From: a virus
Lineage: Duplodnaviria; Heunggongvirae; Uroviricota; Caudoviricetes
DNA: 64,000 bases
Reading direction: 5' to 3' (one strand)
Virus record (IMG/VR): IMGVR_UViG_3300035208_002606
The stretch's first letter is position 1; each line of letters starts with the position of its first letter. The notes beneath the pieces were generated by a model. That model had not been told where the DNA came from. It made no database searches and was given only the letters and a program-made list of their open reading frames with translations. The translations under genes were made by a program, and so were the position numbers. Shown piece after piece: positions 29,440 to 32,759 of this stretch.

Positions 29440-30564
29440 ATGGAAAAAAAGTTTTGGCATCCGTCCGTTACATCCCAATTTACTGTTTGCCCCATTCCTT
29501 ATCATATGGATACTTACAGAGGGTGTACCTACAACTGCCTCTACTGCTTCGCAAGAGACTTCGTTGTATTCTCCCGTAGGAATTCCGAACACAAGGAATT
29601 TTCATATCTAGTCGGCAACAAAGCAGACTCCCTAGACAAATGGATTCAGCGAACTCTCAAGAAGGATTACGATTACGACAAAGCGGAGGAAGTGGCTTTC
29701 AAGGAGCGCATCCCCATCAAGATTGGTGCAACTTCCGACCCCTTTCCACGCTCCGAAGCGCAGGACAAAATCACTTACGATATTTTGAAGGTGTTCGAAA
29801 AGTACGATTACCCCTTGGAAATTCAGACGAAGAATCCCGAAGTACTTGCAACTTACGCAGAAGACTTTAAAAATCCAAATTGGGTCGTAGCAGTTACGCT
29901 GATTTCAACAGATGAAGATTTCCTGAAAGTGGTTGAACCTCTCGCCCCTTCTGCAAAGGAACGTCTAGCCGCAATTAAGAAATTGACGGAGCAGGGTAAG
30001 AAAGTGATGGTGAAAATACAACCCGCCATCTATCCCAAAATCCTGAAGGACTTGCCCGACTTGGTCGAGAAGATTCACGAGGCAGGGTGCTTCGGCTTCA
30101 ACACCGAAGGATTGAAAATCAGGAAATCAATGCCTGAAAGTGAACGGCTTCTTTTTACTAAAATCAGTAAGGCCATCGGTTACGACCTGAGGAATTATTA
30201 CGCCAAGAATGGAATTACAACAGGTTCGGATTGGGAGATGACCAATCCGAAGAAAATGGAATATATCAACTTGGCACAATCTTTGGCAGATAAATACGGA
30301 CTGAAATTCTATGTTGCAGACAACAATATGGGCTGTCTAGGTTGTAACGGAGAATGTTGCGGGACAGACCTTCTGCACGATTACAGGATTTGGGGAAACA
30401 ACACCCGCAGTCGGCAGTTTCCCGATAAGTCAAAATATTCCGAAGAACTAGGAAAGTGCAAGGTCAACTTCGTCCGCAGTCAGACCAATGCCAACAAAAC
30501 AATGAATGAAGTTTCTCAACGCTATAACGAGAAACAGAAGTACGCTTTGAAGACATTAGTATGA
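29440..30564 (+). CDS. radical SAM protein (spore-photoproduct-lyase-like family)
   Basis: DTYRGCTYNCLYCFA (CxxxCxxC), GATSDPF, IQTKN, EP.APS..ERL; extra C-terminal CCG. Confidence 0.85.
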   Translation: MEKKFWHPSVTSQFTVCPIPYHMDTYRGCTYNCLYCFARDFVVFSRRNSEHKEFSYLVGNKADSLDKWIQRTLKKDYDYDKAEEVAFKERIPIKIGATSDPFPRSEAQDKITYDILKVFEKYDYPLEIQTKNPEVLATYAEDFKNPNWVVAVTLISTDEDFLKVVEPLAPSAKERLAAIKKLTEQGKKVMVKIQPAIYPKILKDLPDLVEKIHEAGCFGFNTEGLKIRKSMPESERLLFTKISKAIGYDLRNYYAKNGITTGSDWEMTNPKKMEYINLAQSLADKYGLKFYVADNNMGCLGCNGECCGTDLLHDYRIWGNNTRSRQFPDKSKYSEELGKCKVNFVRSQTNANKTMNEVSQRYNEKQKYALKTLV

Positions 30565-30596
30565 AACATATCGATTTATTTGCAGGAAGAGTATGA
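30561..30596 (+). pseudogene. orphaned 5' end of the C5 methyltransferase (MKHIDLFAGRV*)
   Basis: motif I HIDLFAG repeats the start of 31284; ATGA-coupled to the radical SAM stop. Confidence 0.75.
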
Positions 30597-30602
30597 AAAC
30601 AA

Positions 30603-30703
30603 TAAATAATAGTGTAGGGACAAGGAGTAATTACCCATTCGGAATACCTCGTATATTCTGGATTACCTACACTATTTTAATAATTTTACGAGGAGGTTGT
30701 TAA
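30603..30703 (+). promoter_or_regulatory. late promoter plus structured leader RNA, copy 4
   Basis: P1 aatagtgtagg/cctacactatt; loop cctcgta (30647-30653) pairs with tacgagg (30687-30693). Confidence 0.8.
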
Positions 30704-31303
30704 ATGGAAAATAATATTGAACTTAAAGAGAAAAAACGATTAAAATATTGTTGGGTTTGTGGAAAAGAATTTGAGGCACATACGCCGTGGCACAGATATT
30801 GCTCGCACAAATGTGAAGCAGAAAATCAAAGAAATATTAAAGGAAGAGTTGTTGATAAAGGAAGATATTGTAGACAATGTGGGAAAAAATTTATTCCTTC
30901 ACGAAATGGGGGACAAAATAAACAACATTGCTCTCCCGAATGTGCAGTTAAAAGTGCTAGAGAATCTAGGTCTAAATTTTATAAACTAAATCCACAAAAA
31001 CGAAAAGAGTATGGTTTAAATAGAGAAAAAAAAGTAGGAAAAGACAATAATTTATTAAGATTTTATTTGCGATATCCTGAAGCCCCTAAAAAATGTCAAG
31101 GTTGTGGCAATGATAGGGTTCTTGATATTGCACACAGACCCGAATTTAGGAGAAATGGGGCTTGGAGGTCTAAATCAAATACAACAATCAAAAAAGTATG
31201 GATTTTATGCCCAACTTGTCACGCTTTGTTAGATAGAAAAGGCTGGACTCCAGAAGAGATTGGGATAAAGGAGGAGGAGTCAAATGCCGCTAAAGAAATT
31301 TAA
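30704..31303 (+). CDS. HNH endonuclease with two zinc-finger repeats
   Basis: CWVCGKEF...YCSHKC, CRQCGKKF...HCSPEC, CQGCG...DIAH...LCPTCHALLD. Confidence 0.75.
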   Translation: MENNIELKEKKRLKYCWVCGKEFEAHTPWHRYCSHKCEAENQRNIKGRVVDKGRYCRQCGKKFIPSRNGGQNKQHCSPECAVKSARESRSKFYKLNPQKRKEYGLNREKKVGKDNNLLRFYLRYPEAPKKCQGCGNDRVLDIAHRPEFRRNGAWRSKSNTTIKKVWILCPTCHALLDRKGWTPEEIGIKEEESNAAKEI

Positions 31304-32759
31304 TCATATTGATTTGTTCGCGGGAATTGGGGGATTTTCTTATGCCGCCCGACAGATTTGGGGTGAGGAATATGAACCCGCATTCTTCTGCGAAATCGAC
31401 AAGTACTGCCAAGCCGTACTCAGAAAAAATTTTGGAAAGGAGATAAAGATTTATGGGGACATTAGAAAAGTCACCAAAGAGAGATACCTTAGAGATATTG
31501 CCAACGCCAAGGGCATCCAAAACGACAAACGAGAACGAGGAAAATTGGAAGAAGAGGCAAGCGGCAGGAAAGGTCTCGACTCCCCCTCTCGCTCTCGCCA
31601 TTCAAATGTCCCGCCGCAAGAAAACCAAGACTTTAAAATTGACCTCCTTACCGCTGGCCCACCCTGCCAACCCGCATCTCAAGCAGGAAAGCGAGAAGGA
31701 GAGGAAGATGACCGTTGGCTCTGGGACGAAATGTTTAAAGTTATACAAGACTTTAAACCGACATGGTGCATCGTTGAAAATGTTTACGGACTTCTTAGTC
31801 TCAAAAGGGGAGTGGTATTCGACTCGTTGTTCTCTAAGATGGAAAGCCTTGGTTACGAAGTCCAACCATTTGTTATTGGTGCAGTCGGCAAAAACGCTCC
31901 CCACAAAAGATACCGAGTCTGGTTTATTGCTCACGCCAAGGGCAACGGAAGTGTTGGAAAGTCAGGAGGGGTTCGTCAACAGGAACAACGACAGGTCGAT
32001 GAATTGCTATCCCAACTTGACAACGCAAATCAGCGGGATGCTGACTACTCCGAATGTTCAGGACTCAAGGAATGTTCCTGCGGCGCTGAGGCCGAGCAGA
32101 ATCGAGACGGGGAGAAAGACGGATTATCTCAGCCGCCAAATTGCAATGGTTCCGACCCCGACAGGCACGGATTACAAGAGCAGAGGGCCGAACAGCAAAC
32201 AGATGGGCGTGGACAATTTGATGAAAATGCTCCCGACCCCAAGCACGAAGGATATGTCGGGCGGGGCAGTACAGGCAGAGGCAACGGAGACGGGATTCAA
32301 GAGGGTGAGCAAACAGGGCAAATCTCACGGGGCGCAACTTCACGATGTGGTGAAGACCGTCTCGATGTTGGGAACTCCGAAGGAACAGGACAGTCGTGCG
32401 GCTTTGACGGACAGGGGCCGAAGCAATATGGGGGAGCAAGTGAATCAGGCTTTGAAAGATGGGACAGAGGGTGGTATGAAGTTGCAACCAAACTTTGTAG
32501 AGTGGCTAATGGGCTTCCCGCAAAATTGGACGGACTTGAACTCACCGCCTCCAAACACAGAGAAGAAAGATTGAGAGCGTTAGGAAATGCCGTAGTGCCG
32601 CCGTTGGTTGCCGAGTTTCTCAAGGCCATTAAAAAGGTCGAAGAGATGAATTTGACGGACGAGCCAAAAGTGAAAAAAACGATTGAACACATAAATATAG
32701 ATGAGAGTGGAGAAAAGTATTTCGTGACAAAGACACTAAAGAATTTTGGAGTGAAGTAA
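31284..32759 (+). CDS. DNA (cytosine-5) methyltransferase, alpha chain (motifs I-VIII and X)
   Basis: DLFAGIGG, CEID, GDI, GPPCQ, VENV, PHKRYRVW, LGNAVVP; motif IX absent in this frame. Confidence 0.85.
   Translation: MPLKKFNHIDLFAGIGGFSYAARQIWGEEYEPAFFCEIDKYCQAVLRKNFGKEIKIYGDIRKVTKERYLRDIANAKGIQNDKRERGKLEEEASGRKGLDSPSRSRHSNVPPQENQDFKIDLLTAGPPCQPASQAGKREGEEDDRWLWDEMFKVIQDFKPTWCIVENVYGLLSLKRGVVFDSLFSKMESLGYEVQPFVIGAVGKNAPHKRYRVWFIAHAKGNGSVGKSGGVRQQEQRQVDELLSQLDNANQRDADYSECSGLKECSCGAEAEQNRDGEKDGLSQPPNCNGSDPDRHGLQEQRAEQQTDGRGQFDENAPDPKHEGYVGRGSTGRGNGDGIQEGEQTGQISRGATSRCGEDRLDVGNSEGTGQSCGFDGQGPKQYGGASESGFERWDRGWYEVATKLCRVANGLPAKLDGLELTASKHREERLRALGNAVVPPLVAEFLKAIKKVEEMNLTDEPKVKKTIEHINIDESGEKYFVTKTLKNFGVK
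31453..32574 (+). CDS. nested +1-frame methyltransferase beta chain (repeat modules plus motif IX)
   Basis: 373 stop-free codons; six [LMV]xTP modules; C-terminal KLQPNFVEWLMGFPQNWT resembles C5-MTase motif IX. Confidence 0.7.
   Translation: MGTLEKSPKRDTLEILPTPRASKTTNENEENWKKRQAAGKVSTPPLALAIQMSRRKKTKTLKLTSLPLAHPANPHLKQESEKERKMTVGSGTKCLKLYKTLNRHGASLKMFTDFLVSKGEWYSTRCSLRWKALVTKSNHLLLVQSAKTLPTKDTESGLLLTPRATEVLESQEGFVNRNNDRSMNCYPNLTTQISGMLTTPNVQDSRNVPAALRPSRIETGRKTDYLSRQIAMVPTPTGTDYKSRGPNSKQMGVDNLMKMLPTPSTKDMSGGAVQAEATETGFKRVSKQGKSHGAQLHDVVKTVSMLGTPKEQDSRAALTDRGRSNMGEQVNQALKDGTEGGMKLQPNFVEWLMGFPQNWTDLNSPPPNTEKKD

Follow-up and report, generated by a model that had tools for sequence, protein, structure and literature searches.

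A probable two-subunit DNA (cytosine-5) methyltransferase of an uncultured phage, encoded in two frames of the same DNA

The stretch of DNA analysed here (the window; 64,000 nucleotides (nt), one strand of the IMG/VR virus record IMGVR_UViG_3300035208_002606, Caudoviricetes) contains a gene for a DNA (cytosine-5) (C5) methyltransferase that is open in two reading frames over most of its length. The outer open reading frame (ORF) is referred to as alpha and the inner one, lying in the +1 frame, as beta. A preliminary description, made from the nucleotide letters alone, had reported both ORFs, the motif set of the methylase, six module heads and a motif IX-like string LQPNFVEWLMGFPQNWT, and both ORFs were found exactly at the places noted there, with all of the other features present in them. 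The features of the locus are as follows.

31284..32759, + strand: alpha coding sequence, 491 amino acids (aa); putative catalytic subunit with motifs I–VIII and X plus two unconserved spacers (from the ORF, PF00145 and the conservation profile)
31311–31334, + strand: alpha motif I, DLFAGIGG
31383–31400, + strand: alpha motif II
31452–31472, + strand: alpha motif III
31453..32574, + strand, +1 frame: beta coding sequence, 373 aa, wholly within alpha; putative specificity and motif IX subunit (from the ORF, phrog_1008 and homologues)
31479..31628, + strand: insert in alpha between motifs III and IV; the +1 frame is beta module 1, type R (from occupancy and module typing)
31629..31928, + strand: doubly functional stretch with alpha motifs IV, VI and VIII and a conserved beta segment in the other frame (both frames conserved)
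31656–31679, + strand: alpha motif IV, GPPCQPAS
31770–31784, + strand: alpha motif VI, IVENV
31810–31884, + strand, beta frame: conserved helix and beta-hairpin segment of beta, EWYSTRCSLRWKALVTKSNHLLLVQ, with an invariant Trp
31902–31925, + strand: alpha motif VIII, HKRYRVWF
31929..32468, + strand: alpha filler, an unconserved spacer; the beta frame holds modules 2–6 (types U, W, I, O and G)
32469..32540, + strand: another stretch in which both frames are conserved, with motif IX in beta and the pre-X block in alpha
32472–32540, + strand, alpha frame: alpha pre-X block, WYEVATKLCRVANGLPAKLDGLE
32482–32532, + strand, beta frame: the motif IX-like string of beta given above
32583..32603, + strand: alpha motif X, GNAVVPP, 3' of the beta stop codon

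Alpha is matched by the Pfam model DNA_methylase (PF00145) with an E-value of 2.4e-41 and contains the complete catalytic motif set of this family, i.e. I (FxGxGG), IV (PCQ with the catalytic Cys), VI (ENV), VIII (RxR) and X (GNxV). Beta is matched by PHROG 1008 (phrog_1008, 'DNA methyltransferase') with an E-value of 4e-29. The target-recognition region and motif IX, expected between motifs VIII and X, are absent from alpha and present in beta. At this position alpha exhibits the filler of about 180 aa, which is rich in G, Q, E, D, S and R, extends from motif VIII to the pre-X block and shows no conservation in relatives. The insert between motifs III and IV occurs in only 10–35 % of the relatives (occupancy 0.11–0.34). 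Toward the C-terminus, the last ~36 residues of alpha (32649–32756) have an occupancy of 0.02–0.35 in relatives and form a lineage-specific tail.

The nature of beta was assessed by comparison with relatives in which the whole enzyme is one chain. In gp22 of the Mycobacteroides prophage prophi88-1 a single frame contains motifs I–VIII, LLPTP modules, the string FSEWMMGWPIGW and then IGNGVVP; one-chain relatives have the LLPTP modules and FSEWMMGWP in the interval from motif VIII to motif X. In hhalign, the beta profile is aligned with the VIII–X region of the one-chain actinobacterial enzymes at a probability of 98.4 % (E 5e-15), and the AlphaFold2 (AF2) model of a one-chain enzyme can be superposed on M.HhaI over its entire length (Z 23.8, root-mean-square deviation 3.2, 254 residues). 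From this match and this superposition we conclude that the variable (target-recognition) region of an ordinary C5 methylase resides in beta, together with motif IX. Pfam gives no score to the VIII–X region that is homologous to beta. Sequence searches of the PDB with beta, the beta profile and the beta C-terminus found nothing, and a Foldseek search with the AF2 model of beta, which has a predicted local distance difference test (pLDDT) value of 61, returned no meaningful match. Within this model, residues 100–150, which lie over motifs IV–VIII, reach pLDDT 77–86, and only some of the modules fold, e.g. type O as three strands and a helix with pLDDT 81–88.

The length of the open +1 frame was compared with several expectations. 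In the other long ORFs of the window the longest open +1 run spans 23–97 codons. None of 20,000 rounds of synonymous resampling of alpha produced 373 open +1 codons, whereas shuffling the synonymous codons within the gene gave a +1 run of this length in 0.035 % of trials. A conservation profile was then obtained for both frames from 132 distinct nested loci. Alpha is conserved in three blocks (31299–31470, 31629–31928 and 32469–32640), and at 31929–32468 the frequency of its top residue is 0.01–0.31, which means essentially no conservation. Beta reaches 0.45–0.68 at 31629–31928, is conserved at the module heads and reaches 0.65–0.77 at 32469–32540. Conservation swaps between the two frames along the gene and coincides in two stretches.

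Selection on beta was investigated over motifs IV–VIII in 31 loci, where the +1 translation was scored with a beta profile derived from the other loci and compared with 100 synonymous recodings of alpha per locus. The natural sequences scored 142 bits on average versus 77 bits for recoded alpha. In every one of the 31 loci the observed score was higher than that of any of the 100 recodings, and only 1.6 % of the recodings remained open. Since the observed scores lie above the recodings, the N-terminal half of beta is a real, selected sequence. In the reverse direction, the alpha filler contains no stop codon in 120 of 120 loci; synonymous recoding of beta introduces a mean of 5.5 stops into it and leaves on average 1.3 % of recodings open. 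For the window 0 stops were found versus 10.6 expected, and 0 of 300 beta recodings were open. As the filler is kept free of stops in this test, alpha must be translated through it. Both ORFs are real and under selection, each constraining the codon choice in the other. The dual coding with an EcoHK31I-like split put forward in the preliminary description is thereby supported, both frames being open and selected over hundreds of independent loci. As a correction, beta outside the modules is not filler either: the stretch over motifs IV–VIII is also conserved and selected.

Signals for translation initiation were found upstream of both ORFs.

31270..31279, + strand: Shine–Dalgarno sequence of alpha, GGAGGAGGAG, within the 3' end of the HNH gene (from the sequence)
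31434..31442, + strand: Shine–Dalgarno sequence of beta, GGAAAGGAG, encoded by the alpha codons G-K-E, 10 nt before the beta ATG

The beta ATG (31453) is built from Tyr-Gly of alpha motif III (T-ATG-GG). The arrangement of Shine–Dalgarno sequence and ATG also occurs in two jumbo-phage contigs (L017 and L018) with betas 60–62 % identical, and in patescibacterial (candidate phyla radiation, CPR) and Bdellovibrionales relatives (L097, L098 and L100) the beta ATG lies on the same Tyr-Gly of motif III. Over the 132 loci, the +1 frame, taken from stop to stop, reaches its first beta-frame ATG after a median of 7 codons.

A search with the beta alignment (A1) revealed at least 456 loci on viral contigs and 231 loci in a set with one genome per species, the latter including Patescibacteria, Bdellovibrionales, Bacteroidota, Chlamydiae, Lentisphaerae and a Methanoperedens bin; 138 called beta homologues were found. 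The layout was surveyed in 177 loci taken from phages, from viral contigs and from genomes that span many phyla. In 145 of these, beta lies inside alpha in +1 and the alpha frame contains motif X; 21 are misses of the motif IX pattern used, two mycobacteriophage loci are overlapping two-gene forms, and two are read in one frame, one of which (L034) is the usual layout with a 1-nt indel after ENVxGLL..GG. For the window and for 143 of the 147 loci with a +1 nested beta, it is the alpha frame that contains motif X. Among phages the nested layout is very widespread. By sequence comparison the layout is shown to be conserved, and beta to be homologous to the VIII–X region of one-chain enzymes. A frameshift artefact of sequencing or assembly as the source of the nesting is ruled out because the layout is common to 145 independent loci.

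In a profile search of 1.84 billion cluster representatives, beta-like proteins numbered 22,386 with a cut-off of E ≤ 1e-10 and 3,856 with one of E ≤ 1e-30, and the nearest ESM Atlas clusters to beta are unannotated and mainly viral. When Paenibacillus larvae phages were matched by tblastn with alpha and with beta, the hits of the two overlapped but lay in different frames. In the GenBank record of Paenibacillus phage Diva the nested gp50 is labelled 'g49 internal gene', and the same +1 offset of beta is found in Bacteroides phage BS-TP4. In a 60 %-identical relative (L004, 2293–4047) alpha diverges directly after EVATEFCGISNGFSD and continues for about 170 codons without motif X up to the end of the locus, which may reflect an insertion (endonuclease or intein-like) at IX/X.

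We consider it likely that this locus of an uncultured phage specifies a DNA (cytosine-5) methyltransferase made of two subunits, for which one piece of DNA is read in two frames. Alpha, starting at 31284, would provide the S-adenosylmethionine-binding and catalytic fold (motifs I–VIII and X), with its two spacers translated solely to connect the conserved parts. Beta would start from its own Shine–Dalgarno sequence and the ATG built into alpha motif III and would supply what usually sits between motifs VIII and X, namely the helix-hairpin segment, the string of modules as the target-recognition region, and motif IX. The two chains would then assemble into one HhaI-like enzyme that methylates the phage DNA. 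We infer that both chains are translated in the phage and form a heterodimer like the one demonstrated by experiment for M.EcoHK31I; selection on both frames speaks indirectly for two products that are both needed for activity. Several observations weigh against this reading. Pfam searches with beta and with its C-terminus including motif IX gave no match. The AF2 model of beta alone, at the low pLDDT stated above and with a predicted template modelling score of 0.31, is poor. The AF2 model of a one-chain actinobacterial homologue has a good catalytic domain and IX–X region, while its modules have pLDDT <50 and appear disordered. Further, no expression or methylation evidence was found for the phage or any relative.

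It is improbable, in our estimation, that beta is more than the specificity half and, with both proteins made, acts alone as a DNA-binding or regulatory protein or serves several alpha-type partners. Such a role would be in accordance with the very large number of beta-type proteins (the 22,386 representatives) and with the occurrence of modules on both sides of the central segment of beta. However, in the 145 nested loci beta always lies within an alpha that lacks exactly what beta carries, and motif IX belongs to the methylase fold, as seen in the superposition on M.HhaI.

Quite unlikely is also the production of one chain by recoding, in which ribosomes, once past motif VIII, would shift from frame 0 into +1 for the modules and motif IX and be back in frame 0 ahead of motif X. 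This would rebuild the one-chain enzyme present in actinobacterial prophages, and one-chain homologues ordered I–VIII, modules, IX, X do exist. In addition, an A4G4 run, CAAAAGGGGAG (~31800; segment at about 31795–31810), follows motif VI at the place where two independent sequences, L034 and P0115, change frame. We nevertheless regard recoding as unlikely because the ~160 open, conserved beta codons upstream of the shift and the 180-codon alpha filler would not need to be open, yet selection keeps both. Beta also possesses its own Shine–Dalgarno sequence and ATG, a junction as in L034 and P0115 would lose motifs VII, VIII and X, and the chains of M.EcoHK31I are separate, as stated in PMC2836561. 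In L034 (1837–2821) and in P0115 themselves, the change from the alpha to the beta frame just after ENVxGLL..GG yields alpha(I–VI)::beta fusions, which may result from a homopolymer sequencing error or from a slippage-prone site.

That only alpha is a gene, with the +1 frame open as a by-product of its composition or conservation, or with the methylase decaying, is hardly credible: recoded alpha still retains the 77 bits given above, so that part of the beta similarity over IV–VIII follows from alpha conservation, and the higher GC content of the gene lowers the stop frequency, but this reading is contradicted by the conservation profile, in which beta is the conserved frame where alpha is unconserved, by the beta scores far above the recodings in every locus scored, and by the homology of beta to the VIII-to-X region of one-chain enzymes, besides the absence of open frames among the 20,000 resampled genes and the fact that alpha without beta would have neither a target-recognition domain (TRD) nor motif IX. 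As an observation in its own right, the alpha/beta gene has a GC content of 48.5 % compared to 39 % for the window, a difference that may stem either from the burden of dual coding or from a foreign origin.

Returning to the two-subunit methylase, beta contains six modules with heads of the xLPTPxxxD type.

31498, + strand, beta frame: head of module 1, LPTPRAS, type R
31927, + strand, beta frame: head of module 2, LLTPRATE, type U
32041, + strand, beta frame: head of module 3, LTTPNVQD, type W
32149, + strand, beta frame: head of module 4, VPTPTGTD, type I
32230, + strand, beta frame: head of module 5, LPTPSTKD, type O
32368, + strand, beta frame: head of module 6, LGTPKEQD, type G

The modules were typed by clustering of their tails; single-linkage clustering had put 712 of 936 modules into one group via the shared head. 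Tail clustering resulted in some 30–50 recurrent types, and the six modules of the window belong to six different ones. Other betas contain the same types, arranged differently and placed before as well as after the central segment. The PTPTGTDYKSRG module type, for instance, is N-terminal in L017, L018 and L097 and fourth in the window. The beta of L004 carries three modules at its N-terminus and differs in its fourth unit, and close relatives in general differ in module content and have the flanks in common. According to a crude count of heads, relatives contain roughly 0–7 modules with a median of 3, which places the window within the top 3 %. The varying content supports a turnover of modules that would have taken place while both frames remained open. 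This agrees with the preliminary description, which had proposed a gain of modules with both frames kept open and a comparison of module number across relatives; alpha is open in all 120 loci mentioned above. One correction to it comes from the one-frame relatives, according to which the modules form the normal VIII-to-IX region in a large subfamily of methylases.

Typed and shuffled modules fit a multispecific enzyme in the sense of being compatible with it, and no further. A more far-reaching reading, which we hold to be possible but doubtful, is that each xLPTPxxxD-headed module is an autonomous target-reading head, so that a beta with six types would methylate several unrelated motifs and constitute a combinatorial, dual-coded specificity array. 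The conserved head of a module would then dock at the catalytic cleft and its type-specific tail would read the bases. If this were true, phages could alter their anti-restriction spectrum via module swaps on either side of the beta central segment, and each insertion of a module would also have to keep the alpha frame open.

The neighbours of the methylase are a radical SAM gene, an HNH endonuclease gene (30704–31303) and a RuvC-like resolvase gene. No gene for a restriction enzyme adjoining the methylase was found among the flanking genes, and the methylase is therefore probably an orphan, self-protective enzyme of the phage, for which we infer an anti-restriction role. Upstream, at 30561–30703, an 11-codon stub, MKHIDLFAGRV*, duplicates the methylase N-terminus with motif I and overlaps the radical SAM stop codon in an ATGA. 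It is followed on the 3' side by a leader and then by the HNH gene, the 3' end of which carries the Shine–Dalgarno sequence of alpha. It looks as if an endonuclease cassette was inserted in the 5' end of the methylase gene.

Outside small viruses it is, to our knowledge, very unusual for two genes on one strand to overlap by more than 1 kb with selection acting on both products. The overlap described here exceeds this length, and hundreds of the loci sampled have kept it. Pfam lacks a model for the beta family, whose sequence clusters number in the tens of thousands; most members are annotated as 'hypothetical' or left uncalled. Recognition of the layout corrects the annotation of many phage methylases that seem to have no TRD. 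The nested family also represents a large natural data set for codon sharing between two proteins, and a beta that can be expressed separately offers a simple handle on whether short typed modules set methylation specificity.

The nested two-chain kind of C5 methylase has been known since 1995, and members of the present family are already annotated in GenBank. Among the closest systems are those of Paenibacillus larvae phages (Fernvirus; e.g. Diva gp49/gp50) and Bacteroides phage BS-TP4, which have homologous alpha and beta chains with the same +1 nesting and belong to the same family. Unlike the window, they have fewer modules (the beta of Diva has 234 aa) and no insert between motifs III and IV. 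No functional study of the nested methylases of Fernvirus or BS-TP4 was found in the literature searched, nor was an account of the family-wide layout or of typed modules.

M.AquI and the methylases of cluster A-type mycobacteriophages (DreamTeam1, BabyBack) are similar in that the enzyme is split after motif VIII into overlapping frames, and the second chain of the actinophages contains LLPTP modules and a motif IX homologous to beta. In this type (PMC3404938), motif X is located on the second chain and the overlap is 8–180 nt rather than full nesting, whereas the window has motif X in alpha. The two methylase genes of BabyBack overlap by 8 nt and those of DreamTeam1 by 180 nt, both with motif X in the second chain. 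These mycobacteriophage layouts are intermediate ones. In the DreamTeam1 locus (L014:1441–2100; Mycobacterium phage) the second ORF is open from a GTG at 1441, its overlap being with gene 80, and contains the conserved TSGMMLAGRL within the overlap; the record annotates the second gene only from 1780, probably a truncated annotation.

Multispecific C5 methyltransferases, with several independent tandem TRDs that each give a target of their own, are known from the Bacillus phages SPR, phi3T, rho11 and H2 (cited in the reference list of PMC8936443). In them, as in the window, several short and separable units follow one another from motif VIII to motif IX. The SPR-type enzymes differ from the window pair in being single chains. 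A tblastn search with beta gave no match to any Bacillus phage; homology to the TRDs of SPR, phi3T, rho11 and H2 was assessed at this level.

Also among the closest systems is M.EcoHK31I of E. coli HK31 (recognition of YGGCCR; Lee, Kam and Shaw 1995). PMC2836561 and PMC3404938 agree with the precedent given in the preliminary description. In this enzyme beta lies entirely inside the alpha gene in another frame, activity needs both chains, internal Met codons of beta can act as starts, and alpha as published includes the TRD so that beta adds only motif IX. A tblastn search of plasmids yielded only Paenibacillus and Bacteroides records and no enterobacterial plasmid match. As in M.EcoHK31I, the beta ORF of the window lies wholly within the alpha ORF in another frame, with motifs I–VIII and X in alpha and motif IX in beta. 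In contrast to M.EcoHK31I, which is part of a restriction-modification system, the gene of the window appears to be a phage orphan, its TRD-equivalent modules are in beta with an unconserved filler in the VIII–X stretch of alpha, and its beta extends upstream over alpha motifs IV–VIII. What differs from the published M.EcoHK31I is that beta would contain the specificity region in addition to motif IX and that beta overlaps the catalytic motifs.

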